DNA of 47,507 nt from contig JAFDDO010000001.1 of assembly GCA_019310825.1 (NCBI GenBank), positions 1 to 47,507 on the forward strand, written 5' to 3'. This stretch comes from Deltaproteobacteria bacterium (GTDB lineage Bacteria > Desulfobacterota > Dissulfuribacteria > Dissulfuribacterales > UBA3076). The position numbers were made by a program, and so were the translations under genes. Below, in pieces: positions 5,388 to 43,312 of this stretch (the first letter of the stretch is position 1; every line of letters starts with the position of its first letter). The notes beneath the pieces were generated by a model. The model was not told the origin of the DNA. It saw nothing but the letters and a program-made list of their open reading frames with translations, and ran no database searches.

Positions 5388-6428
5388 ATGATTGAGCAAA
5401 CTAAAAGCAGAGAAGGGTTGATTTTCAAGACTGTAGAAAGCCGTTTAACTTCAGGACGATTTCAGCATTGGAAGACAAAATTAATGCGCCAGGCTATGGA
5501 GGCGAACAAAGAGCTGTGGCTGATCTTGTCCATGTTTTCTATCATTGGCATCATGAATTATCTATTGACCGCCCAGCAGATGTTGCTGCAGCTATACGTC
5601 ATGCCTACCATTTTTTCCGCCTATTTTTTCGGACGTCGCCATGCCGTTCTGACCGCAGTGGCCAGCATCTTACTAGTAGGTCTTGTTTTATACTTCAACT
5701 CAGATCTGTTCAAAGAGATGGAACAATTCAATTCAGTAAGCGGCCAATGGTATGAAATCATGGCTTGGGCCAGTATGTTAGTGATCATTGCATATTCAAT
5801 GGGTACTCTCTATGAACGTCAGGCATCACAGATGAGTGAACTCCAGAAGACCTACCGGGGTCTTCTGGTAATTCTGCGCCATTTCATTTCCAAAGATAAG
5901 TATACCGAAAACCATTGTTATCGCGTTTCGATCTATTCAGCTAAAATCGCTACCTACCTCGGACTCGCTCCTCCACAGATTGAAACGGTTCGTGCCGCTG
6001 CCTTGCTCCATGACATTGGAAAAATCGATATCGGCCGGGAAATTCTTTACAAGGCAGCGCAATTAACCAGGGAAGAGCGTGAAACAATGAAAAAACATGT
6101 GGAACTGGGTGCTGATATTCTGGATTTAGTAGAAGCTCCCCTAGGCAAGATTATTCCTATCATTTTGGCTCACCACGACAAACATGATGGATCGGGCTAT
6201 CATCCGATCAACGGAGAGAAGATCCCTATAGAGGCTAAAGTCCTCTCCGTGGCAGATGTATATGATGCCCTGGTAAGCGATCGTCCTTACCGCAAGGCAT
6301 TATCTCCATTTGAAGCCAAGGAAATCATCATTAAAGGTTCGGGAAAGGATTTTGATCCCAAAGTCGTCGATGCTTTCATCGGAGTTTTCCAAAATGGAGA
6401 AATGGAAATTCCAAACCTGATGATTTAG
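5388..6428 (+). CDS. Membrane-anchored HD-GYP domain protein (putative c-di-GMP phosphodiesterase)
   Basis: Contains HCYRVS, LLHDIGKI and HHDKHDGSGYHP motifs, preceded by 3-4 hydrophobic helices. The ATG at 5388 follows AAGGGA with about 8-nt spacing. The ORF track start at 5202 is probably too far upstream. Confidence 0.8.
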   Translation: MIEQTKSREGLIFKTVESRLTSGRFQHWKTKLMRQAMEANKELWLILSMFSIIGIMNYLLTAQQMLLQLYVMPTIFSAYFFGRRHAVLTAVASILLVGLVLYFNSDLFKEMEQFNSVSGQWYEIMAWASMLVIIAYSMGTLYERQASQMSELQKTYRGLLVILRHFISKDKYTENHCYRVSIYSAKIATYLGLAPPQIETVRAAALLHDIGKIDIGREILYKAAQLTREERETMKKHVELGADILDLVEAPLGKIIPIILAHHDKHDGSGYHPINGEKIPIEAKVLSVADVYDALVSDRPYRKALSPFEAKEIIIKGSGKDFDPKVVDAFIGVFQNGEMEIPNLMI

Positions 6429-6486: not shown

Positions 6487-8431
6487 TTATATCAGGAACT
6501 CTTCCACCTTCCTGGCAATGCTTTCGGCATCAAGGCCCTGAAGGCGATACAAGTCATCTGGCTTGCCCGAAGAACTATAGTGTGTCACTCCTATAGTGAG
6601 GAGCTGCTGGTGTGCGCCTGCCCTCACAAGTTCCTGCGCCACCACGGCCCCCAAGCCTGTGTGGGCCACATGGTCTTCAACCGTTATGAGGGGCCCTTTC
6701 TTAGCTGCCTCAAGTATTGATTCTCTGTCTATGGGCTTGAGAGAAGCCATGTTGAGTACCCCTGTTGACAGGCCCTCTGAGTCGAGAATTGACCATGATT
6801 CGAGAACCTGGGATGTGGCTGAGCCATAGGTAAGAAAAGTGGCCTTATCTCCCTGTCTCAACCAATCTGCCCGCCCAGGCTGAAATACATAGTCCGCATC
6901 GTAAAATGGTTTTCCATCCTTTGTGGTAATAATTGACAATTTAGACCTTCCCATACCCACAAAAACATTGCCCGGATTGGTAGCCACATAACGGACTATC
7001 CTGTCGGTTTGATTTGGATCTGCCGGCATAAATATGGAGAAGCCAAAAAGGTTATTGAAAAGTCCCACATAGTCAAGACTTTGATGGGTGGGGCCATCTT
7101 CTCCCACGTCTAGTCCCAGATGAGTAGATACAATTTTAAGATGGGTTTCATTGAGGTCATTTAAGCGGTGCTGGTTGTAAGTCTCCGCTACAGCAAAGAC
7201 ACCAAAGGTACTGAAGAAGGTAGCTAATCCCTCCCTGCTCACTGCTCCAGCACAGGTAGCTGCGTGGTGCTCTTGTATGCCTGTCTCTATGAAGGTGCTT
7301 GGAGAAACGCTGTGAAACCCTTGCATCTTTACTGATCCTTCCAGATCACAGCTAAATCCTACAATCTTTGGGGCAGAACCAGGAACATTGTTCCTTTGGG
7401 CTAGATCCTTTAATGCTGCGCCGTATGCAGAGCGGCAGTCTGTTTTGTTTTCAGTACCGTAGACAATAGGTTTTCCAGAATCAATAGATGGATAATTGAT
7501 TTCTGGTTTTTTGTTAGTGCCCTTTATTTTGTGTTCAGTCCTGTTCTTTGACCACATCTCAAGTAGGCCCTGATCTTGTCCTAGTTCTCTCAAAGCTGCA
7601 TGGGCATCATCCTTTGGCAGCGGAGCCCCATGATACTTTGCCTTATCCTCCATAAAGGAGATACCTTTTCCCATGACGGTACGCGTGATCAGAACAGTGG
7701 GGCGGTTGGGTACAAGGCCGGCATGTGTCCACGCCCTCTTCAGGGCCTTGAATATGGTCTGAAAATCATGGCCGTCCGGCACATACAATACATTCCAGCC
7801 TGCGGCAGAATATTCATCCCTTACACGGACAGGCATGACATCTTCAGTAGAACCTCCAATCTGGAGATGATTCCTGTCGACCACACCGATCAGGTTCCCT
7901 TGTCCGAACTTTGTTGAAAAACGTCTGGCTTCAGCTATCTGTCCCTTCTGCTGTTCTCCGTCGCCCATGAGGACGATTGTTTTGCCCGGCCGATCAAGAA
8001 GATTTTGGGCAAGACATATGCCTGTACCTACGGAAAGACCCTGGCCAAGATTTCCAGTATTCCACTCAATTCCCGGCATGGTTCGTTCTACATGGCCGGC
8101 ACAGGGTGAACCGGCGCGACGAAACTCGGTAAGGAAATCTTCCTCTGAGAAATAACCAAATTCAGCAAGTACGCTGTAGACACACGGAGAGATATGCCCG
8201 ATGCTGGTCACGGTCTGGCCAGAGGGGTTCTGCCGGACGATGTTTGATTACGCTGTAAAGGACAATCAGGGTGTGCAGAGAAGAAAGAGAGCCACCGGGA
8301 TGACCGCTTTTTGCAAGGGTAGTAGAAAGAATAATGCGCGTGGCACATCTGTTCCACATGGCCTGTAGCTCAGAAATCTGTTCCTGTGTAAGTTCGTTTT
8401 GTTTTTCTATATCTATGTAAAACATAGGCAT
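6487..8431 (-). pseudogene. tkt: Transketolase, reading frame interrupted near 8205-8215
   Basis: ORF 8162-8431 encodes the transketolase N-terminus (SGHPGGSLSS...EPLWPDRD). ORF 6487-8211 continues in another frame with VTSIGHISPCVYSVLAEFGYF...GHVE...GNLGQG...GDGEQQKG and the full Pyr and C-terminal domains. The usual DR(F)V residues at the junction are missing. Confidence 0.7.
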
Positions 8432-8432
8432 G

Positions 8433-8580
8433 CTTCACTACAAGTCAAAAGTAATTAACACTTTGTTGATCTTGTATTTTGACAGTAAAATTTGAAAACT
8501 AAAATTTGAAATTGAGAAAAATACAAAGATATAGACGCGTTACCTAATTTCTAATTTCAAATTTCCAGTTTCGACAGCGG
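8433..8580. repeat. ~145-nt intergenic element, copy A (partner at 43104-43244), with an internal AT-rich heptamer-array hairpin
   Basis: By-eye alignment with 43104-43244 is identical at most positions, with one ~6-nt indel. Hairpin arms are 8488-8519 (aaatttgaaaactaaaatttgaaattgagaaa) and 8543-8575 (cctaatttctaatttcaaatttccagtttcgac). Confidence 0.75.
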
Positions 8581-8596
8581 TTACTTCAGTAATGTT

Positions 8597-9160
8597 TTAT
8601 TTCTTATCCTTTTTGTTCTTGGATTTTACCTGGTTATCATAGGCTTTTATGACCTCCTCCGTAATATCTACATCAGAGTTAATGAAATATATACCAGGCA
8701 TGTTTTTGTCCAGAATGAGCGTGTATCCACCTTCCTCACCAATATGGCTCACAACCTTTTCCAGTTCATTGAGTATTGGCTCCATGCTTTTGGTTTCTGC
8801 CTGGCGCATTTCAAACTGAGCATCCTCTTTTTCATCTTGAAGATCCCGAAAAGCCTTTTTATATTCGCGCTCCTTTTCTGCCCTGGCAGCCTCGTTCATT
8901 AAAGGACCTTTTTTTTCAATGTCTTCCTTAAATGCATTGATCTCATCCTGTTTATCCCTGAGTTGTTTCTGCAAATTTGTAAGTTTCTTGTTGAGCTTCT
9001 CCATGGCCTTTTGGCCGGCCACGGATTTTCGTACCACTTTTTGCATATTGATAACAGCTATCTTTGCCTGAGCTGTTTCTCCAGCAGTTACACTACAGCA
9101 CAGGACCGCGGTCCACAAAAAAATAAGCAGCACAGGTATTAAGCTTAGGCGACCTTTCAT
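8597..9160 (-). CDS. skp: Periplasmic chaperone Skp/OmpH family
   Basis: Signal peptide followed by AKIAVINMQKV, then a long K/E-rich coiled region and YTLILDK near the C-terminus. This is the typical OmpH architecture. Confidence 0.8.
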   Translation of the reverse strand: MKGRLSLIPVLLIFLWTAVLCCSVTAGETAQAKIAVINMQKVVRKSVAGQKAMEKLNKKLTNLQKQLRDKQDEINAFKEDIEKKGPLMNEAARAEKEREYKKAFRDLQDEKEDAQFEMRQAETKSMEPILNELEKVVSHIGEEGGYTLILDKNMPGIYFINSDVDITEEVIKAYDNQVKSKNKKDKK

Positions 9161-10356: not shown

Positions 10357-12162
10357 TCAAGGAAGATAGGCCAACTTGGTGCCACTTATATATGATTTAA
10401 TACCGTTTACGATCCCCTCGGCCACGCGGTCCAGATAGTGGTCACTTTTGAGGCGTCCCTCCTCTTTCCTGTTACTGATAAACGACACTTCAACAAGAAC
10501 AGAAGGCATCCTTGCACCTATCAGGACAAAAAATGGGGCCTGTTTGACTCCTTTGCTTTTCACATTGCTATATTCTTTTCTGAGGTTACTTACAACTTCC
10601 CTCTGCACATAACTTGCGAGGCGTGAGGACTCATCGACCTTGGTGTTTTTCATTATGTCGTTGAGGATGTGCTTAAGATCCCCTATTCTTTTAGTGGATG
10701 TAGCATTTTCTCTGGCTGCCACCCTCATGGCCTCTTCATCCAGCGCAAAGTTTAAAAAGTAGGTCTCAACTCCACTAGCTCTCCTACTGGGAGCTGCGTT
10801 TGCGTGAATAGACACAAAGAGATCGGCTTTTCTGGCGTTGGCAATGGCAGTCCTCTGTGTAAGTGGCAGGAACCGATCTTTTTTTCTGGTTAGGATAACC
10901 TGGCAGGCAAGGTCTTTTTTTAGTCGTGAAGCCACTTTCTTCGCAATCTTGAGCACAACGTCTTTTTCCCTCAGGCCGGTAGGCCCGATAGCCCCTGGAT
11001 CCTTTCCGCCGTGGCCGGCATCTATCACCACTCGTTTTACACAAAGGCTTAGCTGTTGCGCGAGAGAAAGACCATTATCTTTTAATTGGTCCTTGGTCTT
11101 TTTATGTATTTTTGAAGACTGGGGAGTGCAGGAAGGCCTCTTGAAATAGCTCTCTCCAAAAGCGTCCACCACCACCCTGAAGGGGTCATCAAGATAAAAA
11201 ATCTTTGTCTTATGGGTCTTCCTGAGGTCAAGTACCACCCGGACTGTACCATGTTTGAACTGGGCTACTCTCACTCTTTTGAGTAGCCCATCCTGTATAG
11301 AGATGTTGCTCTTGATGTTTTTCCCTATACGGGCCGGCTTAAGGTCTAAATAAATACGTTCCGGAAGGTGTTCGGCCTTATTGGCAGGGAGATATCCCTT
11401 CTTAAAGGATACAGGGCCTGCTGTGTCAATTACTACCCTGGTGTAGTCCGAAGCAGACCAATGCCTCACCTCCCTCACAGTAGCAGGTTTTGTACCTGGA
11501 ACAATCCTCGGACTGGAGAAACCGGCGGGTCCTTTTTCCTTCTCATAATATGTTGTCAGTTTTGAAGATTTTATTTTCTGCTGCTGTTCAGGACCTAGAA
11601 TTTTCAACTTGTTTCCGGCAATCCTGGCCTTGTCTCTTTTGGGATATTCTTCAACTATACGTTCCCAAGCCTCTCGGGCCAGCCTGATATTTCCGGTACG
11701 CTTGTAAAGGTCGCCGAGGGCGCAGAGGGAGTCATCTGCCAGGCGGCTTTGCGGGAATCTCTCAGTTAGGACCTGATATCGCTCAATGGCCTCTTTTATA
11801 TCCTTCCTGGCTCCTGAGTATCCATATAATTCACTGTAGCAACAGGCCATCATGAAGAGGGCTTTGGGGGCAACCTTCTTGTTATTGGGATAGGTGAGAT
11901 AGACTTTCCTGAATTTCTTAATTACCCGAACCCATGCTGTTCTGTGAGTGCGAAGTCGGGAATTCCTGGCAAGGCGATCATATTCAGATTTGGCCTGACG
12001 ATAGTTGTATTCAGCCCTGCTTACAGCAGAGTGCCTGGACTTTTTTGCGTGTGCAGAGTCCATGGCAATGAGCAAAAATGTACCTGATAGAAAAGCAATA
12101 ATAAACAGAGACATAAAAAACCGTCGTTGGACGCAGTTATGCTCAGATACTAATAGGCTCAT
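10357..12162 (-). CDS. N-acetylmuramoyl-L-alanine amidase with N-terminal YbgF/BamD-like TPR region and AMIN domain
   Basis: Signal or anchor segment, then TPR-like repeats (YPNNKKVAPKALFMMACCY...RFPQSRLADDSL...EYPKRDKA). An AMIN-like segment follows (VREVRHWSASDYTRVVIDT...VRVVLDL), then Amidase_3 (VVIDAGHGGKDPGA...FVSIHANA...GVETYF). The start is uncertain: 12162 or ATG 12114. Confidence 0.85.
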   Translation of the reverse strand: MSLLVSEHNCVQRRFFMSLFIIAFLSGTFLLIAMDSAHAKKSRHSAVSRAEYNYRQAKSEYDRLARNSRLRTHRTAWVRVIKKFRKVYLTYPNNKKVAPKALFMMACCYSELYGYSGARKDIKEAIERYQVLTERFPQSRLADDSLCALGDLYKRTGNIRLAREAWERIVEEYPKRDKARIAGNKLKILGPEQQQKIKSSKLTTYYEKEKGPAGFSSPRIVPGTKPATVREVRHWSASDYTRVVIDTAGPVSFKKGYLPANKAEHLPERIYLDLKPARIGKNIKSNISIQDGLLKRVRVAQFKHGTVRVVLDLRKTHKTKIFYLDDPFRVVVDAFGESYFKRPSCTPQSSKIHKKTKDQLKDNGLSLAQQLSLCVKRVVIDAGHGGKDPGAIGPTGLREKDVVLKIAKKVASRLKKDLACQVILTRKKDRFLPLTQRTAIANARKADLFVSIHANAAPSRRASGVETYFLNFALDEEAMRVAARENATSTKRIGDLKHILNDIMKNTKVDESSRLASYVQREVVSNLRKEYSNVKSKGVKQAPFFVLIGARMPSVLVEVSFISNRKEEGRLKSDHYLDRVAEGIVNGIKSYISGTKLAYLP

Positions 12163-17687: not shown

Positions 17688-17987
17688 GATGAACGTCGAA
17701 CATCGAACGTCCAACGTCGAATGAAAAACGAATATCCAATACCGAACATTAAACAGCTATTTCTGTTTCTTTTCACCCGCCTTGATACTCGTAACGAAAA
17801 ACGAACTATTCCATTATTCCTCATGCGGGGCAAAAATCCAAGCCTCAATACCTCCCCCTATAAATTCAATGGGTTGTAGAATTTCCGAGACGTTTAATTA
17901 ACAGCCTTTCTTACATATCATAAGTCTGTTTCTTCATCTTTTCCCATTCAACATTCGATGTTGGACGTTAGATGTTCGATGTTCATC
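17688..17987. repeat. 300-bp element bounded by 36-bp inverted repeats made of GAACRTC heptamers (MITE/IVS-like)
   Basis: Left arm gatgaacgtcgaacatcgaacgtccaacgtcgaatg (17688-17723). Right arm cattcgatgttggacgttagatgttcgatgttcatc (17952-17987). 33/36 positions are complementary and the interior is 228 bp. Confidence 0.75.
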
Positions 17988-18189
17988 AGTCCATCCGGCA
18001 TAAAAACAACTTAGCGCTTATGCCTAATGACCTTGTACTTACTCAAACATTATACCACTTAGATTGTGGCTGTCTCAAAATTCAGGCATCTAAGAGCATA
18101 GGATCATCAGAACAGGCGTTGACACCTTTACGTCAGATGGTAGGTTGAGCCTGCCTTTTTCTGAGAACAAGCATGGGGAGAAGAAGATT

Positions 18190-19992
18190 ATGCATAAGAA
18201 GACAATCTTAGTCGTAGGTTCCGGAGGACGCGAACACGCCCTTTGCTGGAAGCTGGCTTCCAGCCCCAGGATTTCAAGAGTATTCTGTGCTCCTGGAAAT
18301 GCTGGCATAAGTCAACATGCCGTCTGTGTACCTTTAAAAGTCTCTGACATTAAAGGCCTTGTATCATTTGTCAAAAAGGAGGGTATCGATATAACGTTAG
18401 TAGGTCCGGAAACCCCTCTGACTGAAGGTCTGGTAGATAAATTTAACGAACATGGACTTGCAGTATTCGGACCTACAAAAGCGGCTGCTGAGATTGAGGC
18501 AAGTAAGGTATTTTCAAAAGATTTACTCACTGAGGCAGGTATACTAACAGGGGCCTACAAGGTCTTTACCGAGCCTAATGCCGCTTTTGATTATATCAAG
18601 AACATAGTTGGAGTGCCCATTGCAATAAAGGCAGACGGGCTGGCAGCCGGCAAGGGAGTGTTGATCGCCCACTCACTTGCTGAGGCGGAAGAGGCAATAG
18701 ATCTCATCCTTTGCAAAAAGGCCTTTGGTAAAGCAGGCAATTGTCTGATAGTAGAGGAATTTCTCGCCGGGGAAGAAGCCTCCTTCATGGCTATAACCGA
18801 CGGAACAACAGTCCTTCCCCTTGCCACTTCTCAGGACCATAAGCCCATATTTGATAATGATCAGGGGCCTAATACCGGCGGTATGGGTGCTTACTCTCCA
18901 GCACCAGTGGTAAGCGGTGCCCTATTTGACGATATCATGGACACGGTTATGAGACCCACAGTAGAAGCCATGGCAAGGGCAAAAAGGCCTTATCAGGGAG
19001 TACTTTATGGTGGCCTTATAATTAAAGATGATGTGTTTAAGGTCTTGGAATTTAACTGCCGGTTCGGTGATCCAGAGGCCCAGCCGATCCTGATGCGACT
19101 TAGCACTGACCTGATGGAAGTATTTGAGGCAGCACTTGAAGGCAGGTTAAATGAAGTCAAACTTGAGTGGGACCCAAGGGCTGCTGTCTGCGTTGTCCTG
19201 GCCTCTGGAGGCTATCCTGGAAGCTATGAGACAGGCAAGGTCATCCACGGCCTGGAAAAAGTGGCTGAGATGCAAGACGTAATGGTCTTCCACGCAGGGA
19301 CTGCCAAGGATGGAGACCGATTCGTCACATCTGGTGGAAGAGTTCTGGGGATTACGGCACTTGGTAATACAATTCCAGAAGCGATAGAACTTGCATATAA
19401 AGCAGTTGGTCAAATTTCCTGGGAAGGCATGCACTATAGAAGGGATATTGGTCAAAAGGCCCTCGGATACACGTCCGGTGCGACCAGTACGCCTGTTTCC
19501 TCGCATCTCGGCATCTCTGCCAAGGTAGGTATTGTCATGGGAAGCCTCAGTGACAAGGAGGTTATGGAAGCAGCCAGGGATATCCTGAATGAGTTTGGTA
19601 TTGCATATGAGTTGAGGGTTGCCTCAGCACATCGCTCCCCGGAACTTACTGCATCATACGCCAGGGAGGCAGAAACTAGAGGAATAAAGGTCTTAATAGC
19701 CGGCGCCGGAATGGCCGCACACTTGGCCGGCAGCTTGGCAGCTAATACTATACTCCCTGTAATAGGGGTACCAGTAAACAATTCGGCATTGAATGGACTT
19801 GATGCCTTGCTCTCCACTGCCCAGATGCCCCCTGGAGTCCCTGTTGCAACTATGGCAATAGGAGAAGCCGGGGCAAAAAATGCCGCCTTGCTGGCACTTC
19901 AGATCCTGGCACTGGAAGATCAGGACCTTGCAAGGAAATTAAAAAAATACAGAGAGGCCCAGGCAAGAGAGATAGAAGAGGTTAAACTTTAA
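18190..19992 (+). CDS. purD: Fusion protein: phosphoribosylamine-glycine ligase (PurD) + N5-CAIR mutase (PurE)
   Basis: N-terminal KILVVGSGGREHAL...ATP-grasp...GGRVLGITA is PurD. The C-terminal ~160 aa are PurE (KVGIVMGSLSDKEVM...SAHRSPE...AGMAAHLAG...PVIGVPV). ATG 18190 follows GGGGAG. Confidence 0.9.
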   Translation: MHKKTILVVGSGGREHALCWKLASSPRISRVFCAPGNAGISQHAVCVPLKVSDIKGLVSFVKKEGIDITLVGPETPLTEGLVDKFNEHGLAVFGPTKAAAEIEASKVFSKDLLTEAGILTGAYKVFTEPNAAFDYIKNIVGVPIAIKADGLAAGKGVLIAHSLAEAEEAIDLILCKKAFGKAGNCLIVEEFLAGEEASFMAITDGTTVLPLATSQDHKPIFDNDQGPNTGGMGAYSPAPVVSGALFDDIMDTVMRPTVEAMARAKRPYQGVLYGGLIIKDDVFKVLEFNCRFGDPEAQPILMRLSTDLMEVFEAALEGRLNEVKLEWDPRAAVCVVLASGGYPGSYETGKVIHGLEKVAEMQDVMVFHAGTAKDGDRFVTSGGRVLGITALGNTIPEAIELAYKAVGQISWEGMHYRRDIGQKALGYTSGATSTPVSSHLGISAKVGIVMGSLSDKEVMEAARDILNEFGIAYELRVASAHRSPELTASYAREAETRGIKVLIAGAGMAAHLAGSLAANTILPVIGVPVNNSALNGLDALLSTAQMPPGVPVATMAIGEAGAKNAALLALQILALEDQDLARKLKKYREAQAREIEEVKL

Positions 19993-24020: not shown

Positions 24021-25778
24021 ATGAGCTTTCCTTATAAAAACAAGAGGATTTTGTTCCTTTTCAGCCTCGCAGGTCTTGTGATCATTGCTACGTCGTCTGT
24101 TGGTTGTTTTTGGCAGAGCAATAATGTTAATAGCGAAGATAACATTGATTCGTCTAGGCTTTCTCAACAACGGGGCAGTGACTACTATTCCCAGCAAAGC
24201 CCCCTGTACAAGGGCATAATTCTTGATAGGACAGGAGCGATATTCGCCGTAAGCCAAAAAACAATTTCTGCCCTAGTAAGGCCTTCCAAGTTGCCGCAAG
24301 TTGATGATTGGGTACCACGGGTATCAGAAATCCTTGGCCTTGATCACCAAACTTTGGCAAACATGCTTGCAGAGGAGCGGGGCGTTATCTGTCTAAAAGA
24401 CGGCATTTCCGTAAAACAAGGCCTGAAGCTCAAAGACATGCAGCTTAAAGGAATAGAAATACTGGAAAAATATAAAAGGGTATATCCTTGCGGTTCACTG
24501 GCCTCTCCGGTTTTGGGTTTTGTCGATCAAGGCGGCAGAGGCCTTGAGGGAATTGAATACACATATGGCAGCCTTTTAAGCCACACTAGTTTGCCACAAA
24601 TTCACGCAGGTGGCCATGAGCTTACGCTTACCCTTGAAAAAAACATTCAGTCATCAGCGGAAAAAGAGCTTGGCAGGCAGATGAAAAGGCTTAAGGCCGA
24701 CAAAGGCTGTCTTGTTATAATGAGTGTTGAAAACGGTGAGATCCTTGCCCTTGCCAGCAAGCCTTCCTGGGACCCGGAACGTTTTTGGGAACTACCTGCG
24801 ACGAATATTACAAATTACTCTCTGCAAGATAATGTTGACCTGATGGTCCTTGCGCCTCTTCTAAACTGGATGTTTGAACAAAGTAAGCTTCCAAAATCAG
24901 AAATCCCGTCTTTGGACGAAATGGCCCACAAGTGTCAATGGGAGATTTTGGGTAAAGGTCTGGTCCTATGGAGTCCCTGGAATGAACAGGAGCTGAAAGA
25001 TATCGTCTCTTATGACGACATGTCAAGGGATCTCTGGGATCTGGGTTTTGGTCAGTCTACAGGTATTGACCTTCCGGGTGAAGGCCAAGGCAGCCTGTCA
25101 TCAACCCTGCCAAGGTCACAGAATTGCTTCTTAGGCCGGGCTATCACAGCCAGTCCGATACAGATTCTCAGGGCCTTCTCTGCCCTGATAAATAAAAATA
25201 TATTGGTGACACCACACGTGGCCCTACAAAGCCCTAATGAATTCCTGACATCTGAGTCTTCTGTGAAGGACCAAAGGCAGTCCAAAATCCCATGGTTAAC
25301 AGAAAAGCTTATACTCAAATTGCGGAAAAACCTCGCGGTCAGAGGAGGACCTTCTCTTGCGAGCATTAGGTGGGATGAACAGTCTGAGCAAATATCTACT
25401 CAATTTCCAGCCCAGGTCACTGCCCTGGGATTCTGGCCCGACAAATCACCCAAAGTAAGTTATATTGTTTTGCTCGACGGCGTAAAAGTTGACCCTCGTG
25501 AACGTCGGGGCACCCTAGGACGATCACTAATAGTAGCGAAACAGGCGGCACAAATACCCTTGAAAAACGAATGGCGAACGGTAAAAAGCCAGGAGACCAA
25601 AAAAGAACTCTCCAGGATGCCAAATCTTAAGGGAAAATCCGTAAGGCAGGCCTTGGATATTCTGCAAGCCATAGGCATTTCCATCAAACTCAAAGGTGTA
25701 GGGACTGTGATCGCACAGAAACCAAGATCAGGAATATCTCTTAATGGTGTGAAGGTCTGCAGCATAACCTGTAAGTGA
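24021..25778 (+). CDS. ftsI: FtsI/PBP3-like class B PBP homologue with C-terminal PASTA domain; catalytic motifs apparently degenerate
   Basis: PBP-dimer signature YPCGSLASPVLGFVDQGGRGLEGIEY and VIMSVENGEILALASKPSWDP, transpeptidase-fold landmarks GFGQSTGIDLPGE and ITASPIQILRAFSALIN, and PASTA MPNLKGKSVRQALDIL...VIAQKP. See the findings for the missing motifs. Confidence 0.8.
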   Translation: MSFPYKNKRILFLFSLAGLVIIATSSVGCFWQSNNVNSEDNIDSSRLSQQRGSDYYSQQSPLYKGIILDRTGAIFAVSQKTISALVRPSKLPQVDDWVPRVSEILGLDHQTLANMLAEERGVICLKDGISVKQGLKLKDMQLKGIEILEKYKRVYPCGSLASPVLGFVDQGGRGLEGIEYTYGSLLSHTSLPQIHAGGHELTLTLEKNIQSSAEKELGRQMKRLKADKGCLVIMSVENGEILALASKPSWDPERFWELPATNITNYSLQDNVDLMVLAPLLNWMFEQSKLPKSEIPSLDEMAHKCQWEILGKGLVLWSPWNEQELKDIVSYDDMSRDLWDLGFGQSTGIDLPGEGQGSLSSTLPRSQNCFLGRAITASPIQILRAFSALINKNILVTPHVALQSPNEFLTSESSVKDQRQSKIPWLTEKLILKLRKNLAVRGGPSLASIRWDEQSEQISTQFPAQVTALGFWPDKSPKVSYIVLLDGVKVDPRERRGTLGRSLIVAKQAAQIPLKNEWRTVKSQETKKELSRMPNLKGKSVRQALDILQAIGISIKLKGVGTVIAQKPRSGISLNGVKVCSITCK

Positions 25779-28700
25779 TGTTTGGTAATACACAAAACGA
25801 AAGGACATTGCGGGATATGTTAGAAGTGCTGAGACCTCCTGTTTCTATATCACCTGAGCTGGATGACGTAAAAATCAGGGGCATAACCGCAGACTCCAGA
25901 CAGGTAAAACAGGAATACATATTTGTTGCAATTCCAGGCACTGAATTTGATGGAAGACAGTTTATCAATGATGCCGTGCTGAAAGGAGCATCTGCCCTGT
26001 TAATGCCAAGTCAAGATGTACATCGTTACCTCAAGACCGTTCCTGGAGCACTTCCTGTTATAGGAGTGGACGACCCCAGGCTTTCAACCGGTCTTCTGGC
26101 GAGTGCCTTTTATGGAAATCCCAGTAAAAAAATGGCCCTTATAGCCATTACAGGCACTAATGGTAAGACTACGATCACATACCTCCTGGAAAGCATTTTC
26201 AGCAAAGCCGGGCTGAATCCTGGTGTAATCGGGACTGTAAACCAGAGACATTGTGGCATTGAGGTACCTTCTGAACTCACTACCCCCAATGCTATAAAAC
26301 TGCAGGAGATCCTGGCCAACATGTTGAAACAAGGGGCAAAGACAGTGGCCTTAGAGGTATCTTCCCACGCCCTTGACCAACAAAGGATCTCAGGATGTAG
26401 TTTCGCAGCGTCTATTTTTACCAATCTGGGCCGCGATCATCTGGATTATCATCAGGACATGGAACAATACTTCCAGGCCAAGGTAAAATTGTTTTTGGAG
26501 TATCCCTCTGATACGGCAATTATCAACATTGATGACTTGTATGGAAAGCGCCTATGGGAGATATTACAAAAGGAAAAGATCAGTTATGGCCTCAATCCTG
26601 AGGCCGAGGTAAGACCCACGTTCCAGACCATTAATATTGATGGAATAACAGGTAAGCTTGCCACGCCCAAAGGGCCTGTTTCTATCAAATCCAAGCTTAT
26701 AGGTTTGCACAATCTATACAATATCCTTGCAGCAGTCGCGGCTTCAATCACCCTTGGGATTGATCCAGACCATATTCAGACCGGCATAGAATCAATAATG
26801 CGTATCCCGGGGAGACTCGATCCTGTGCATACCCCCCAGGGAGTGACCGCCCTTGTAGACTATGCCCACACTCCTGACGCCCTTGAAAGTGTTCTGAACA
26901 GCCTTATCAGATTAGGTCCCAAGCCTCTGATTTGCGTAATCGGCTGTGGAGGAGACAGAGACAGGGGCAAGCGTCCTCTCATGGCGAAGGTAGCTGCTTC
27001 ACTGGCAGATATTGTTGTACTGACCTCGGACAATCCTCGTACTGAAGACCCTCTGGCAATAATCGATCAGATGTTGAACGGCCTCAGAGACCTTCCTCCT
27101 TATCACCATGCAACCAAAGCTGAAGTAAAGGTAATTCCAGCCAGAAAAGACGCTATTTTATGGGCAGTAGAAAAAGCGCGGCCTGGTGCCTGTCTGCTCG
27201 TGGCCGGGAAGGGCCACGAAACCTACCAGATAATTGGCAACGAACGACTTGCCTTTGACGATAGAGAAATATTGAAAAAGGCCTTTGGGACGAGGGGTAA
27301 GGGACAAAGGTCGAAGGTCGAAGGTCGAAGGTCGAAGTCAGAGAGTCAAAAGTCAAAGGTAGAGAGTCTTGAGGATCAGGGATTTCGAATAAAGGCTTCT
27401 CAGGTGGCAACGGCTATTGGAGCCAATGTCCTTTCGGGTGACCCGGATACAGAAATCCATGGCATATCAACAGATTCCAGATCAGTAAGAAAAGGAAATA
27501 TCTTCTGGGCACTTTCAGGGGACCGTTTCAATGGTCATGATTTTGTCCTTGATGTTATAAAAAAAGGGGGCATTGGTGCAGTAATCAGTTCTAGCTTTGA
27601 CTTTCGAGCTTTGACTTTAAGCCCTCGATCTCGTCCTATCCTATTGCAAGTCCAAGATGTGTTAAAGGCCCTGGGAGATTTCGCAGCATGGTATAAAGAA
27701 CACCTTGGAATCAAGGTGGTTGGCATTACGGGCAGTTGTGGCAAGACCACTACAAAAGAACTGATTTTCTCGATCCTGGAAAAAAAATGGAAAGTGACTA
27801 AAACGCCCGGGAATTTTAATAACCTTATCGGACTCCCGCTCAGCCTGCTTTCGGCCAAATCCGATGATTCCTGGGCAGTTCTGGAAATGGGAACGAACCA
27901 ACCAGGAGAAATACCCCGGCTGTGTGAAATTGCCCGGCCACAAGTGGGCCTTATTACTACCATACAGCCTGCCCACCTTGTCGGCCTGGGGGGCATAAGG
28001 GAAGTAGCCAGGGAAAAATGGAAACTTTGGCGAGCCCTTCCCCAAACAGGTGCGGCAGTGGTGAACCTTGACGATCCTCTGGTGATGGAAGGGGCCAAAG
28101 ATCTGACGTGCCAGGTGGTGGGCTATTCTCTAACACCTAATCCCCAATTCAAAATTCAAAATTCAAAATTCAAAACTGCAATTACCTGCCTATCATGGAC
28201 CCCTGGCGAGCATGGCACTCTGCTGGATCTTGATATTACCGGAAGCAGACTCTCTGTTGATCTTCCCCTTATAGGAGGAGTGAACGTGCAAAATGCCGTT
28301 GCAGCCGCAGCTACAGGCCATGCAATGGGGCTGACACCGGCCCAGATCAAGCAAGGGCTGGAGGGAGTAAAACCAATTCCGGGCCGCCTTTTTCTGAAAA
28401 ATTTTGGACCTAAATGGAGGCTGATAGACGATTCTTATAATGCAAACCCAGGCTCTATGAGAGCGGCTCTTGAGGCTCTCGATCTCTGGAGCAGGGGCGA
28501 AAAAAAGATAGCGATCCTGGGAGACATGCTGGAACTCGGGGATGCTGCCCACGACTTCCACCAGGATCTTGGACGACTTTCAGCTAATACAGGAGTTGAT
28601 CTTTTAGTCTTCGTAGGCGAATTTGCAGATGCTGTTTCCAAAACTGCCCAAAAGGCTGGTATTTCGCAAAAGGCTATTCGTATCTTCCCCAACACGGAGG

Positions 28701-28834
28701 ATTTGCTTTCCTGGATAGAATCAGCCGCCCTTGATTGCATGCCCTCTCCAGCAACCATACTTGTGAAGGGATCACGGGCCATAGGTCTTGAAAAAGCAGT
28801 GGATGCCCTTATCAGGCATCTGAGAGAGGAATAG
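25778..28834 (+). CDS. murE/murF: Fused MurE (UDP-MurNAc-tripeptide synthetase) + MurF (UDP-MurNAc-pentapeptide synthetase)
   Basis: One continuous 1019-aa frame. The MurE part has [18 protein letters not shown] and DNPRTEDP. A repeat-encoded linker follows, about 27287-27385. The MurF part has [28 protein letters not shown] and [11 protein letters not shown]. The ATG overlaps the ftsI stop (TGATG). Confidence 0.9.
27308..27370. repeat. Tandem heptamer array (GGTCGAA x4 then AGTCAAA-type units) encoding the MurE-MurF linker
   Basis: aggtcgaaggtcgaaggtcgaaggtcgaagtcagagagtcaaaagtcaaaggtagagag, translated as [21 protein letters not shown]. Confidence 0.85.
27589..27633. repeat. Inverted partner array (ctttgacttt units) inside the murF portion
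   Basis: ttctagctttgactttcgagctttgactttaagccctcgatctcg. Its reverse complement contains aaagtcaaagctaga, matching aaagtcaaaggtaga at 27349-27364. It encodes [14 protein letters not shown]. Confidence 0.75.
28145..28176. repeat. Tandem heptamer array AATTCAA x4 in frame in the murF portion
   Basis: caattcaaaattcaaaattcaaaattcaaaac encodes [12 protein letters not shown]. Confidence 0.85.
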
Positions 28835-29918: not shown

Positions 29919-29990
29919 AAAAATTAGTGATTTGGTGATTGAAATGTCTGTGTGTGTCTGTGGCTAATGAATTAATGACTGGGTAATTGA

Positions 29991-31412
29991 GTGGAACTGA
30001 AAGGCAAAAAAGTAACAATACTGGGCATGGGGGTATCCGGCCAGGCAGCTGCCGGATGGATCGTCTCTCAAGGGGCACAAGTCATATGCAGTGACTTAAA
30101 TCCCCTGGAAAAGTGGCCTAAGGGCCTGGCGGGCTGGTGTAACAAAAATGGTGTTGTAATAGAGACAAAAAAACATAAGGTAGAGACCTGCCTCTCATCC
30201 GACCTGATAGTGGTTAGCCCCGGTGTTTCACCTGTAATCCCTGCCCTTGAGGCAGCACGCAGATCCAATATCCCTGTGGTTGGTGAAATGGCCCTCGCGG
30301 CATCCTGCTGGAAAGGACCTCTGGTTGGCATCACCGGCACAAACGGAAAAACCACTACCACGATGCTTGTGGATGAAATGCTAAAAAAGGCCAATGTGCC
30401 TCATGTAAGGGCCGGGAACATTGGAACACCATTATCAGCATTTATTGAAGAACATACTGAGGAAACTATCGCGGTCCTTGAGATTAGCAGCTTCCAATTG
30501 GATTATTTCCCAAGGACCAGATACTTCTCCTTCACTCCTCCAAGGTTCAAGACAACAGCATGGCTCAATCTTGCCCCGGACCACCTTGATCGCTACCAGG
30601 ACATCAAAAGTTACGGAGATAGCAAGGCGGTAATCTATGACTTCCAAGGGCCTGAGGATTGGGCTATCCGCAACATGGACGACAAGGAACTAGAAGCGTG
30701 GAAGTACAGAGGACGTGCTAAAAGGCTCTACTTCGGGATGCTGCGCCCCGGAGTTCCAGGAGCCGGGCTGGACACCTCTTTGAAAAAAATCAACGTCATG
30801 TGGTCTGATAATAAATGGGAGGAATATGACTTAGAAAGCTGGTCCCTAAGGGGTCGACATAATATTGAAAACCTGGCTTGTGCCATACTTATGTCACGCC
30901 TGGCAGGTGCAGGTGCTGGTGCAGTACAGTCTGTTATCCAAAGCTTCAAAGCGGCACACCACAGACTTCAGTTGGTGGTCCAAAATGGGGGCATCGACTA
31001 TTATGACGACTCCAAGGCCACCAATGTTGCATCTGTACTTCGCGCACTGGAGTCCATAGATCAGCCAATAGTGCTCATCGTGGGCGGCCGCGGCAAGGGT
31101 GAAAATTATGCTTCCCTGGCCGAGGCCACAAAAAAGGCACGTATTCGTGGTACGATTGTTATGGGCGAAGAGGCCAAGGCGCTTGAAAAAGTCCTAAGTA
31201 AGGTAGTGCCGGTTATTCAAGTACGTGGAACAAAAAACGGCAAAAAGACTATGAGAAAAGCCGTGGAGGAAGCCACGTCCCTGGCTGAGCCTGGTGATGC
31301 CATACTCCTTTCCCCGGCCTGTTCCAGCTTTGATATGTTCAAAAATTATGAAAAACGTGGCGTGGCCTTTCAGGAGGCAGCCAGGAAATTGTGTAATTTG
31401 GCGATTGAGTAA
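29991..31412 (+). CDS. murD: UDP-N-acetylmuramoylalanine-D-glutamate ligase MurD
   Basis: [22 protein letters not shown], and a C-terminal domain with DDSKATN. GTG start. The last 6 codons and the stop lie in a repeat array. Confidence 0.9.
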   Translation: MELKGKKVTILGMGVSGQAAAGWIVSQGAQVICSDLNPLEKWPKGLAGWCNKNGVVIETKKHKVETCLSSDLIVVSPGVSPVIPALEAARRSNIPVVGEMALAASCWKGPLVGITGTNGKTTTTMLVDEMLKKANVPHVRAGNIGTPLSAFIEEHTEETIAVLEISSFQLDYFPRTRYFSFTPPRFKTTAWLNLAPDHLDRYQDIKSYGDSKAVIYDFQGPEDWAIRNMDDKELEAWKYRGRAKRLYFGMLRPGVPGAGLDTSLKKINVMWSDNKWEEYDLESWSLRGRHNIENLACAILMSRLAGAGAGAVQSVIQSFKAAHHRLQLVVQNGGIDYYDDSKATNVASVLRALESIDQPIVLIVGGRGKGENYASLAEATKKARIRGTIVMGEEAKALEKVLSKVVPVIQVRGTKNGKKTMRKAVEEATSLAEPGDAILLSPACSSFDMFKNYEKRGVAFQEAARKLCNLAIE

Positions 31413-31544
31413 TTTGGTAATTTTAGGAACGGAATTTTAATTTAAAAACGCAGATGTAAGCAGATTGTGAATTTAACTATGAGTCGAGACACACATAAGC
31501 ACAAAACGATCACCAAATTATCAAATTATCAAATTATCAAATTA
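31393..31544. repeat. Inverted pair of octamer arrays (taatttgg / ccaaatta-tcaaatta) bracketing the murD-murG junction
   Basis: Left arm gtaatttggcgattgagtaatttggtaatttt (31393-31424) contains the murD stop. Right arm caccaaattatcaaattatcaaattatcaaatta (31511-31544) encodes the murG N-terminal TKLSNYQIIKL. Confidence 0.8.
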
Positions 31545-32684
31545 GTGGTGGCTGGTGGTGGCACAGGCGGGCATGTGTTTCCCGGAATGGCAGTGGCTGA
31601 GGCCATGGAGTCCTATGGCCGCATAGATATTCTATGGATAGGTACAGGCCGCCCGGTGGAAAAAATGGCGCTTTCAGGACGTAAATGGGCTTACCAAATA
31701 CTGGAAACAAGGCCTTTGCGGGGCTCAGGCCTTGCGGGGACCATACGCTCTCTGGCTGGACTTCCTTTCTCCACGATCAGGGCTTTTTCGTGGCTCAAAT
31801 CATTTAGGCCTCATGTAGTACTTGGTGTCGGGGGATATGTCTCCGGGCCCGTACTTCTTGCAGCGCGTATGCTGCGGATACCTGCAGCCCTCCACGAGCA
31901 AAACCTTATCCCTGGGCTCACAAATCGTTTGGCCTCTAGATTTGCAAAAACAGTGTTTGTGAGCTTTAAAAAAACTGTAAAATACTTCCCAAAAAATAGG
32001 GTAATTTTTACTGGAAATCCCGTACGGAAAAGCATAATTCAATCACAAAAACAAAAATTACCAAATTACCAAATTACCAAATTACCAAATCTTCTGGTTT
32101 TGGGAGGCAGTCAAGGTGCCAGATGCCTGAACCGGCTTGCCGGTTCGGCCATAAAGGTTTTGTGGCAATCCGACTTTCATTTGGAAATTATTCACCAAAC
32201 CGGCAAGCTGGATGTGTCATATGTTGAGAAATTTTACAAGGATGCAAATATTCCGGCCAAAGTGACCCCATTTATCTCCAACATTGGTGAATCCTATTCA
32301 TGGGCAGATCTAGTTATCTGCCGAGCAGGAGCGAGTACTCTGGCTGAACTCGCAACCATGGGGAAGCCATCGATACTCATTCCCTATCCCTGGGCAACGG
32401 AAAGCCATCAGGATGCCAACGCCAGAGAACTGAGTGAAGCCGGGGCTGCCAAATACTTCCTTGAAGGAGAAATCGGTGCTATAAAACTGGCAGGAGAGAT
32501 ACAGTCTTTGCTGGAGGATCCCCAAAAACTCATCAATATGGGAGAAAATGCTCGAAAACTTGAAAAACCCACGGCAGCTGCAGAGATGGCCTCTACACTG
32601 ATAGAGATGGCTGGACATACTTTTTCATATTCTGAAACAGAAACTAATTCATTGAAAGGTTCTATAGTACGTAACCATGTATAA
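31467..32684 (+). CDS. murG: UDP-GlcNAc:lipid I N-acetylglucosaminyltransferase MurG
   Basis: VVAGGGTGGHVFPGMAVA, LVLGGSQGA and GASTLAELA motifs. The start is ambiguous (GTG 31467, ATG 31479, GTG 31545/31548) and none has a clear SD. Confidence 0.9.
   Translation: MNLTMSRDTHKHKTITKLSNYQIIKLVVAGGGTGGHVFPGMAVAEAMESYGRIDILWIGTGRPVEKMALSGRKWAYQILETRPLRGSGLAGTIRSLAGLPFSTIRAFSWLKSFRPHVVLGVGGYVSGPVLLAARMLRIPAALHEQNLIPGLTNRLASRFAKTVFVSFKKTVKYFPKNRVIFTGNPVRKSIIQSQKQKLPNYQITKLPNLLVLGGSQGARCLNRLAGSAIKVLWQSDFHLEIIHQTGKLDVSYVEKFYKDANIPAKVTPFISNIGESYSWADLVICRAGASTLAELATMGKPSILIPYPWATESHQDANARELSEAGAAKYFLEGEIGAIKLAGEIQSLLEDPQKLINMGENARKLEKPTAAAEMASTLIEMAGHTFSYSETETNSLKGSIVRNHV
32055..32090. repeat. Tandem octamer array AAATTACC x4 in frame in the murG interdomain linker
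   Basis: aaattaccaaattaccaaattaccaaattaccaaat encodes KLPNYQITKLPN. Confidence 0.85.
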
Positions 32685-35038: not shown

Positions 35039-35880
35039 AAATTAGAAGGCCCTCTTCAGAATTCAGGTCTTCAGTATGTAGCTCCGGCTCGCGGGACAAA
35101 TCTGCCAAACCGGTATTTTCCTTGTCGTGGTCTATCCACCCTAAAATATTGGTTGGCTTAGCCATAATGTGCATTGGCTTTGTCGGCTTTTTTGTATGTC
35201 GATATTGGGCATGTCAATCTGATCTTTTCAGGATTTGTCAAGTTCTGGTGAAAGGCTGCGATCATGTAACAGAAGATGAGATTTTGCAACTGAGTGATGT
35301 GACCGCCCAGGACAATCTGCTGTCTCTCGATCTGAAATCAATTGCAACGTCCATAGAGGCGCATCCCTGGATCCATGCCGTTGAAGTTAAGAAAAAATTG
35401 CCGGATCACCTAATGATTAAGATCAAAGAACGTACGCCGGTAGCCTTATTGAACTCTGACAAAATGTATTTGGTTGATGAACAAGGTAAAATTATCGATA
35501 AGCTTTTAACGAAAGAGCGTTTTTCTCTCCCAATCATTACAGGAATTGATCCTAAAAACATTATAGATCACCAAATCAACAAATCAACAAATCAACAAAT
35601 CCAAAAGGCCATGGAATTAATATCCATGGCAAGCAAAGGCACAAGAACTCTAGGTGTCAACAATGTTAGCCAAATAGACATAGCCAAAAGAGAAACTTTA
35701 GTACTCTATACATCTGACAGCGCTATTCCTTTTTATTTTGACACTAAAAATCTCAGCGCCCAATTCAGTAAGGCGGAAAAAATCCTATATCAACTCTATC
35801 GTTCAGGAATATATAAAAAAGTAGCTAAAGTTGAGCTGGATTACGGCCCTGGCCAGGCCCTAGCCAGTCTGAAACATTAG
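35035..35880 (+). CDS. ftsQ: Cell division protein FtsQ (POTRA domain)
   Basis: ATG overlaps the murB stop (ATGA). TM helix, then POTRA (VLVKGCDHVTEDEIL...IEAHPWIHAVEVKKKLPDHLMIKIKER), in the position upstream of ftsA. Confidence 0.85.
   Translation: MKIRRPSSEFRSSVCSSGSRDKSAKPVFSLSWSIHPKILVGLAIMCIGFVGFFVCRYWACQSDLFRICQVLVKGCDHVTEDEILQLSDVTAQDNLLSLDLKSIATSIEAHPWIHAVEVKKKLPDHLMIKIKERTPVALLNSDKMYLVDEQGKIIDKLLTKERFSLPIITGIDPKNIIDHQINKSTNQQIQKAMELISMASKGTRTLGVNNVSQIDIAKRETLVLYTSDSAIPFYFDTKNLSAQFSKAEKILYQLYRSGIYKKVAKVELDYGPGQALASLKH
35569..35602. repeat. Tandem octamer array CAAATCAA x3-4 in frame in ftsQ
   Basis: caccaaatcaacaaatcaacaaatcaacaaatcc encodes HQINKSTNQQIQ. Confidence 0.85.
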
Positions 35881-40117: not shown

Positions 40118-40144
40118 TAAAAATTACACTGTATTATAGATAAT

Positions 40145-40270
40145 GCTGAATTTTGAATGTTGAATTGTGGAAGAACTTTTAAAAGAGATACACCTTTAAT
40201 CACACAGGTCATATTTTTTGAGATAAGGATGCCCTTTACCTTAATTCAGCATTCACAATTCAACATTTTT
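40145..40270. repeat. Hairpin element between folP and cdaA: arms of gaatgttgaatt-type repeats, 14-bp perfect core stem
   Basis: aatgttgaattgtg (40156-40169) pairs with cacaattcaacatt (40254-40267). The arms extend as degenerate tandem units and the interior is 84 nt. Confidence 0.75.
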
Positions 40271-43007: not shown

Positions 43008-43103
43008 AAGTAATCCTCCGCTACACTAGTATATTTTTTAAACATAAATCAAAAAACATAATAAATCAAAATAACGAATTGAATACAATAATTATTTGGC
43101 GTC

Positions 43104-43244
43104 CTTCACGACAAGTCAAAAGTGGTTTACACTTTGTTGATCTTGTATTTTGGCAGTGAAATTTGAAACTTGAAATTGGAAAAAATACAAAAATGTAGAT
43201 GCGTTACCTAATTTCGAATTTCGAATTTCCAGGTTCAACATCGG
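43104..43244. repeat. ~145-nt intergenic element, copy B (partner at 8433-8580)
   Basis: cttcacgacaagtcaaaagtggtttacactttgttgatcttgtattttggcagtgaaatttgaaacttgaaattgg...cctaatttcgaatttcgaatttccaggttcaacatcgg aligns collinearly with copy A. Confidence 0.75.
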
Positions 43245-43312
43245 CATTAAATTCGATAATACACGCTTTTTCAAAAAAAGTATAAACTCGTGAATGAAGG
43301 ATGCCAATTATT

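Follow-up and report, generated by a model that had tools for sequence, protein, structure and literature searches.

The stretch of DNA analysed here, hereafter the window, comprises 47,507 nucleotides of contig JAFDDO010000001.1 (assembly GCA_019310825.1), assigned to a deltaproteobacterium of the Dissulfuribacterales, and carries a division and cell wall (dcw) gene cluster in which murE and murF are fused into a single open reading frame (ORF). The linker between the two enzymes is encoded by a perfect tandem array of the heptamer AAGGTCG followed by degenerate heptamers, and an inverted array of the same unit family lies further downstream, inside murF.

The fused murE-murF gene and its heptamer arrays

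According to the ORF list and its translation, the reading frame passes through the linker without a stop codon (Table 1), in agreement with the preliminary description of this DNA, which had proposed a single bifunctional enzyme of 1019 amino acids. The NCBIfam model for bifunctional MurE/MurF (NF008896) matches the protein from end to end (residues 11-1013 against profile positions 14-957 of 965), with a score of 921.7 bits that lies under the curated equivalog cut-off of 1023, and the separate models for MurE (652.8; cut-off 373) and MurF (510.5; cut-off 288.6) are passed. Pfam recognises two full sets of Mur ligase domains, and the P-loops are conserved, one per half (GTNGKTT and GSCGKTT), with both ligase activities predicted from sequence. 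The predicted bifunctional MurE-MurF architecture is unambiguous despite the sub-threshold score of NF008896, and a crystal structure of the fusion is available from Bordetella pertussis (PDB 8f5d).

The unit AAGGTCG, a rotation of the GGTCGAA given in the preliminary description, holds no stop codon in any frame of either strand and, since seven is not a multiple of three, the array is read in all three frames in turn, with a period of seven amino acids (KVEGRRS). The two-unit degenerate motif RGTCRAARGTCRAA, allowing at most one mismatch, has seven matches against 0.23 expected, a count reached by none of 100 shuffles, and all seven are confined to the linker and partner sites. In reverse complement, the partner array reads as AAAGTCA/AAGCTCG-type heptamers, and its site is a loop of the MurF N-terminal domain. 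The inverted arms 27349-27368/27599-27618, about 230 nt apart, are 85% complementary, and the arms 27346-27363/27590-27607 are 89% complementary. When G.U pairs are allowed, an ungapped helix of 30 nt (27314-27343/27589-27618) is among the four best long-range helices of the 47.5-kb window, and another of 33 nt (27291-27323/27595-27627) takes in the 5' flank. Both the translated linker array and the reverse-complementary array within murF had been recognised in the preliminary description; it had placed the partner at 27589-27633, which is right as to the site, but the array proper ends at 27618 and is continued by a non-repeat complementary flank as far as 27637.

In the AlphaFold2 model (mean predicted local distance difference test score, pLDDT, of 86), values below 50 are restricted to residues 1-7 and 508-536, the latter being the linker. 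The lower-confidence parts of MurF are the blocks encoded by the partner array (residues 611-620, mean pLDDT 64) and by a third array (residues 791-800, mean pLDDT 59), both of them in loops longer than those of Bordetella 8f5d. The partner loop exceeds that of 8f5d and of distant homologues by about 7-8 residues, and includes the segment FDFRALTLS (residues 608-616), which had rightly been singled out as extra. Since the murEF arrays are held by the low-confidence linker and loops, they occupy insertion-tolerant sites.

Table 1. Coordinates of the fused gene, its modules and arrays, and other arrays of the window
Feature	Position (strand)	Remarks
murE-murF fused ORF	25775..28834 (+)	1019 aa; GTG start shares 4 nt with the ftsI stop
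MurE module	25775..27289 (+)	residues 1 to ~505; profiles match 28-504 and 32-503; PDB MurE chains align to residue 505
Non-repeat 5' flank GGGACGAGGGGTAAGGGAC	27288..27306 (+)	complementary to 27619-27637; within the outer stem of the predicted RNA fold
Inter-enzyme linker, disordered	27296..27382 (+)	residues 508-536; pLDDT <50
Perfect heptamer array (AAGGTCG) x4.4	27307..27337 (+)	Tandem Repeats Finder (TRF) period 7, score 62, 100% matches
Degenerate heptamers AAGTCAG, AGAGTCA, AAAGTCA, AAGGTAG, AGAGTC	27338..27368 (+)	TRF 27335-27357 (period 7) and 27305-27368 (period 21); arm 1 of inverted repeats I3 and I4
MurF module	27392..28831 (+)	residues ~540-1019; profiles match 540-1012 and 566-1012; PDB MurF chains align 540-1013
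GTG codon	27404..27406 (+)	sole in-frame GTG/ATG/TTG from array to MurF core (script scan of 27281-27480)
Inverted partner array TTCTAGC TTTGACT TTCGAGC TTTGACT TT	27589..27618 (+)	TRF period 14 x2.1; inverted repeats I3 and I4
Partner 3' flank AAGCCCTCGATCTCGTCC	27619..27637 (+)	pairs with 27288-27306 (helix search and RNA fold)
Third translated murF array (AATTCAA) x4.3	28146..28175 (+)	central-domain loop; TRF score 60
(CAAATTAT) x3.9	31514-31544	MurG N-terminal extension
(AAATTACC) x4.5	32055-32090	MurG interdomain linker
(ATCAACAA) x4.4	35567-35601	FtsQ
Inverted array pairs, murD/murG region	31379-31424 / 31515-31544; same first arm with 32054-32099	
Inverted array pair	17688-17723 / 17952-17987	36-nt arms, (GAACGTC)n vs. 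(TTCGATG)n; 228 nt of intergenic DNA enclosed; upstream of the ORF at 18145
Inverted array pair	40142-40170 / 40239-40267	29-nt arms, (AATGTTG)-type heptamers; spacer between two minus-strand genes
Inverted array pair	43158-43179 / 43208-43229	long-range helix search

Age of the fusion and variation of the arrays among relatives

A protein search returned many fused homologues of about 1000 aa, at identities from 100% down to 39%. Those at 62-93% identity align with a long linker that is hypervariable in both length and sequence, and in fused relatives at 39-57% identity (P0034, P0036, P0039, P0042, P0046 and P0053) the junction is short and without repeat; at about 46-53% identity, ...AF(G/E) is followed almost directly by the MurF N-terminus. 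DNA was fetched for 14 relatives (L001, L002, L081 and L161-L171; ~10-23 kb each; L161 is from MAG GCA_964646435.1), of which L081 and L002, sister relatives of about 80% identity, are fused via a short linker without a clear array. MurE-MurF is the commonest Mur chimera, with forms that have and forms that lack a disordered linker, delta-proteobacteria included (Shirakawa et al. 2023, PMC10214165), and the fusion family (NF008896, 8f5d, PMC10214165) was found across many phyla. Since no repeats are seen at the junctions of distant fused relatives, and since the fusion has a family name of its own and a solved structure, the array is secondary, and comparison of the junctions shows the fusion to be older than the linker array. 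The preliminary description had suggested the reverse, namely that heptamers took the place of the murE stop codon and intergenic spacer and thereby made the fusion, while naming the same fusion with a non-repetitive linker as the observation that would speak against it; precisely such relatives were found. Although the array sits exactly at the junction, and the stop codon of murD, a gene of this operon, is likewise overlapped by an array, it is extremely improbable that the fusion arose from the array, given the array-free fusions, both distant and sister, and the spread of the family.

Arrays are present in the linker of ten relatives at about 83-91% identity and of L166 (69%), and the unit differs: AAGGTWG in L001 and L165, AGAGGTC/AGAAGTC in L161 and L164, AAGGTTC in L162 and L171, AGGGTTC in L163, GGAGTTC in L170, GGCAAAG in L166, and a degenerate unit in L169. 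Exact (AAGGTCG)x3 is absent from all 171 fetched loci. The partner segment in most relatives is still an inverted array of the AAGGTCG/AAAGTCA type. In P0126 (98% identical), the array is of equal length and more homogenised. The density of arrays is 2.6-6.8 per 10 kb in most close relatives and 0-0.9 in L081, L002, L167 and L168.

Length differences of the linker array among relatives are exact blocks of seven amino acids, that is, three units, and two alleles from the same 90% protein cluster differ by the block RVQGSGF only (GSKGRVQGSGFRVQGSG vs. GSKG-------RVQGSG). A simulated change of one or two units, in either direction, brought a stop at residues 527-535, before MurF, and such truncation of the protein explains the three-unit rule. 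At the murF loop of the third array, compared in L001, L164, L165, L170, L171 and L166, close relatives carry either the heptamer (AATTCAA)n or the octamer (AAATCACC)n, which encodes NHQITKSPNHQ, and the type does not track overall protein identity: L001, the closest relative, carries the other type than the window. The AAATCACC family recurs in relatives in the murF loop, in the mraY-murD and murD-murG spacers (inverted), at two murG sites and in ftsQ. Several contigs, among them those coding for P0123 and P0134, end exactly at the array, the L162 contig starts in an array (positions 1-41), and L164 has a run of N in its murG N-terminal array (~6100-6230); as shown by these breaks and gaps, the repeats degrade the contiguity of metagenome-assembled genomes (MAGs).

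Pairing of inverted arrays in murEF, murD/murG and the rest of the window

Energies of RNAduplex for linker and partner were dropped because they are inflated by composition, shuffled controls already reaching about -40 kcal/mol, and column-wise covariation was inapplicable to arrays whose units share no register from genome to genome; pairing was measured by full folds against partner-shuffled controls and by ungapped helix scores. The sense RNA of 27270-27660 folds with a minimum free energy (MFE) of -128.4 kcal/mol (z -3.4; 0/100 shuffles as stable), and both the MFE and the centroid fold pair 27287-27333 with 27589-27640, non-repeat flanks included, as predicted by the suggestion in the preliminary description that the arrays could pair in the mRNA and enclose the region coding for the MurF N-terminal domain. 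The z-score is -1.7 for the antisense RNA and -1.9 for single-stranded DNA. Shuffling the partner arm makes the fold about 23 kcal/mol less stable than that of the native sequence, and the sense strand folds better than the antisense in 15 of 15 genomes. Mismatches in the murEF pair are G.T rather than A.C in a proportion of 41 to 26.

Among the relatives, L166 carries a new, complementary unit in both arms, the linker GGGGCAAAGGGCCAAGGGCAAAGG facing the partner CCTTTGCCCTTGGCCTTTTGCCCC in a helix of 35 nt with 30 Watson-Crick pairs that reaches into the conserved coding flank, and in L163 both arms are partially replaced. Arms from the same genome outscore arms from different genomes after double-centring, with a permutation p < 5e-5 that ignores phylogeny and is driven largely by L166. 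Specific complementarity (native vs. partner-shuffled) is strong in the window, L161, L164 and L166 (-17 to -25 kcal/mol), moderate in L001, L163 and L165, and about zero in the array-bearing L162, L169, L170 and L171, as well as in the short-linker L002 and L081; L167 and L168, where these arrays are lacking, show weak, non-significant complementarity. The window linker fits the L001 partner better than its own (72 vs. 49), and one linker type occurs with three partner types within a 90% cluster (P0135, P0138 and P0140). The two murEF arms are thus not independent, yet their pairing is not strictly kept.

A parallel case lies in the same operon. The (GTAATTTG)n array at 31379-31424 contains the murD stop codon and is complementary to both (CAAATTAY)n arrays of murG; pairing with the first, in the MurG N-terminus, places the ribosome-binding site and start codon of murG within the loop, and the second partner is the interdomain linker array. 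Where GTAATTTG faces CAAATTAY in the window, GTGATTTR faces CAAATCAC in relatives, a correlated change from G:C to A:T over three arrays, with L161 and L169 mixed. There is no G.U bias in the murD/murG arrays (G.T to A.C mismatches, 33:33), and the z-score of the hairpin fold is -1.4. Among the top helices of relatives, the murEF pair appears in L161 and L166, and the murD/murG pair in L161, L162 and L164. In the mraY-murD spacer of the window (29924-29939), a two-unit remnant, TTAGTGATTTGGTGAT, of an inverted GTGATTTR array can be seen, of which L162, L164 and L165 have 3.5-5.4 copies at this site. Gene order in this part of the cluster (29991-32684) is murD directly followed by murG, as in all fetched relatives from L161 to L169, and no ftsW was seen between the two genes or elsewhere in the examined mraZ-to-ftsZ stretch.

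In total, the window contains 12 arrays in which a 6-9-nt unit is repeated at least 2.8 times, against a mean of about 0.1 in 40 third-order Markov simulations. Head-to-tail repetition of a 6-9-nt unit in at least three copies, above chance and at many sites, as in heptanucleotide long simple-sequence repeats (SSRs) and short tandemly repeated repetitive sequences (STRRs), is therefore a property of this DNA. A mostly intergenic location, the other mark of heptanucleotide repeats, is not, since the linker array, its partner and five others fall in coding sequence (three in murEF, one in murD, two in murG and one in ftsQ); the remaining arrays are intergenic. The published unit TAACTGA, as TAACTGATAACTGA, had no match in the window at up to two mismatches. 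Several of the arrays form inverted pairs, and such pairs prevail among the best long-range helices of the window. Neither the third murF array, (AATTCAA)n, nor the ftsQ array has a near inverted partner in it, just distant arrays or two-unit remnants.

The strongest long-range helix of the window is formed by the pair at 17688-17987, whose RNA fold has a z-score of -6.9 on the plus strand and -4.4 on the minus strand. A retron was considered for this inverted repeat and rejected, because the neighbouring ORF is not a reverse transcriptase but a PurD-PurE fusion. That ORF (18145-19992, 615 aa) is a second fused enzyme of the window, joining the N, A and C domains of glycinamide ribonucleotide synthetase (PurD) to aminoimidazole ribonucleotide carboxylase (PurE). 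No Rfam family reached its gathering score anywhere in the window, the 17688-17987 hairpin included. An intergenic element of about 160 nt is present in two copies, 88% identical, at 8420-8600 and 43090-43270, each between co-directional minus-strand genes, and the arms of its hairpin are themselves heptamer arrays, (TGAAATT)n and (AATTTCN)n. The second-best long-range helix, a hairpin with 31-nt arms and a 62-nt loop (10205-10235/10298-10328), is not made of repeats and is located in the spacer before an amidase gene (10357-12162, minus strand).

Origin of the arrays and comparison with known systems

The reading that we favour, to which we would give a probability of roughly 60%, is that permissive sites in and around an ancestral fusion were colonised by repeats through slippage, that the inverted arrays partly co-evolve, and that the stem is a consequence of this. 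In this uncultured lineage of Thermodesulfobacteriota, long SSRs of 7-8 nt would colonise sites tolerant of insertion, such as intergenic spacers, the MurE|MurF linker, surface loops of MurF, the N-terminus and interdomain linker of MurG, and FtsQ. The AAGGTCG array of the linker would expand and contract by replication slippage, only changes of three units (21 nt) surviving because of its seven-nucleotide unit, while homogenisation of units within an array would explain why close relatives differ in the unit at the same site. The downstream array would be an inverted copy of the same unit family, seated in a permissive loop, and the complementarity of the two arms would let the sense mRNA and, to a lesser extent, single-stranded DNA fold into a long-range stem. 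Template switching or gene conversion between the inverted copies would most likely account for the partial co-evolution of the arms, the stem being a by-product rather than a selected structure, and the encoded peptides would act merely as a flexible spacer and loops. Three observations are hard to accommodate in a purely neutral model: L166 has rebuilt both arms with a new unit; complementarity runs past the repeats into non-repeat flanks (27288-27306/27619-27637, and in L166 too); and the sense strand folds better than the antisense in every genome compared. The sequence covered amounts to about 47 kb of this genome and about 10-23 kb per relative, from which a genome-wide phenomenon would be an extrapolation.

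It is possible, though considerably less probable, that a long-range stem in the mRNA is itself under selection, as an expandable zipper bracketing the region that codes for the MurF N-terminal domain, like the murD-stop and murG arrays around the start and N-terminal domain of murG. Tentatively, such a stem could serve in processing (e.g., by RNase III), in stability, in pacing ribosomes at the domain boundary, or in translational coupling along the long dcw transcript. Stated more broadly, and no less doubtfully, paired arrays of 7-8-nt units might form a selected zipper of RNA (or single-stranded DNA) deployed at several points of this lineage's dcw operon, its arms kept complementary by templated exchange; the pairs concerned could be the MurE|MurF linker with the loop of the MurF N-terminal domain, and the murD stop and spacer with the N-terminus and interdomain linker of MurG, each pair flanking a start site or a segment that codes for a domain. 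If this were true, expression of the cell-wall genes would be tunable through copy number, at the level of processing, coupling or pacing. The strand bias in 15 genomes, the double replacement in L166 and the complementary flanks all speak for a selected stem, as do the difference between the sense and antisense z-scores, the presence of the stem in both MFE and centroid folds, the excess of G.T over A.C mismatches in the murEF pair, and the analogous pair that encloses the murG ribosome-binding site and start codon. They are outweighed, in our opinion, by the near-zero complementarity of four array-bearing relatives and of L002 and L081, by the weak and non-significant complementarity of the related, array-free L167 and L168, by the combination of one linker type with three partner types, and by the better fit of the window linker to the partner of L001. 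In addition, the murD/murG arrays lack a G.U bias and give a modest z-score, and the murEF stem would lie inside a translated ORF.

Active, templated writing of complementary arrays at two nearby sites, whether by hairpin-primed or reverse-transcriptase-like addition of repeats or by a mobile element carrying them, is improbable. A few units do recur at many sites in both orientations, as in the AAATCACC family, one murF site holds either of two arrays among close relatives, and the dispersed element of about 160 nt carries a hairpin of arrays; however, no candidate enzyme was found in the window, the murEF arms enclose conserved coding sequence of MurF and not element DNA, and slippage and recombination suffice for the data. 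A miniature inverted-repeat transposable element or other palindromic mobile element was rejected, since the stretch of ~220 nt that separates the arms codes for the conserved N-terminal domain of MurF, which aligns in all relatives and in PDB structures. A contingency switch, in which slips of one unit un-fuse the enzyme into a truncated MurE and a MurF restarted at the GTG at 27404, possibly in a polyploid cell, is very unlikely. The copies are perfect, the unit is not a multiple of three, and changes of one or two units would create a stop after no more than about 25 codons, at a distance of 30-50 nt upstream from that GTG, which could be a candidate internal start if the array slipped out of frame. 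Nevertheless, no convincing Shine-Dalgarno sequence precedes it, all full-length relatives and cluster members examined are in frame with linker-array indels in multiples of seven amino acids, the short proteins are contig-end fragments broken at the array and not frameshifted alleles, and the gene is an essential housekeeping one, unlike typical contingency loci. We thus regard a phase switch, a fusion born from the array and an artefact as unlikely, and retain slippage-driven colonisation of permissive sites as the preferred explanation.

The arrays provide one concrete route by which a disordered linker or loop of an essential multidomain enzyme can be lengthened or changed rapidly, and they extend heptamer repeats, so far mainly intergenic in cyanobacteria and giant sulfur bacteria, to MAGs of the sulfate-reducer type and to core cell-wall genes. 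Should the inverted pairs be selected, they would represent a long-range RNA architecture of an unusual and evolvable kind within a major operon. In practical terms, arrays break metagenome assemblies and proteins of one 90% cluster differ by blocks of seven amino acids, which matters for binning and orthologue calling.

With regard to known systems, the protein resembles described MurE/MurF chimeras (NF008896/PRK11929; 8f5d; PMC10214165) in having a complete MurE followed by a complete MurF, in its dcw context, and in belonging to the class with a disordered linker, and differs from them in that the linker is encoded by a perfect heptanucleotide array and is hypervariable among near-identical relatives, with two further arrays within loops of MurF. 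A perfect repeat whose unit is not a multiple of three, located in an ORF and varying in copy number among close relatives, recalls phase-variable contingency loci, but here only frame-preserving changes of three units were seen, in an essential housekeeping gene.

Rickettsia palindromic elements enter ORFs in frame and in one piece, as discrete units of about 100-150 bp. They share with the present case the tolerance of hairpin-capable repeat DNA, in frame, at the surface of conserved proteins; unlike them, the murEF arrays are two separate short arrays that flank conserved coding DNA.

Among described phenomena, the heptamer repeats of cyanobacteria and Beggiatoaceae come closest. Direct repeats of the heptanucleotide TAACTGA are known from Beggiatoaceae, Cyanobacteria and Bacteroidetes, alongside cyanobacterial STRRs (MacGregor 2015, PMC4679880); they are mostly intergenic, near gene starts and ends, with a few translated at the protein periphery, including one in a MurG, their function is unknown, slippage is suspected, and only one inverted case is recorded among 170 sets (PMC4679880). 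The arrays described here have other units, some of them of 8 nt, are found inside essential enzymes at interdomain linkers and loops, and include several pairs of inverted, mutually complementary arrays, separated by 30-640 nt, whose members partly change together. While the MurE-MurF fusion itself was already known, the arrays inside essential enzymes and the inverted pairs partly evolving together are new.

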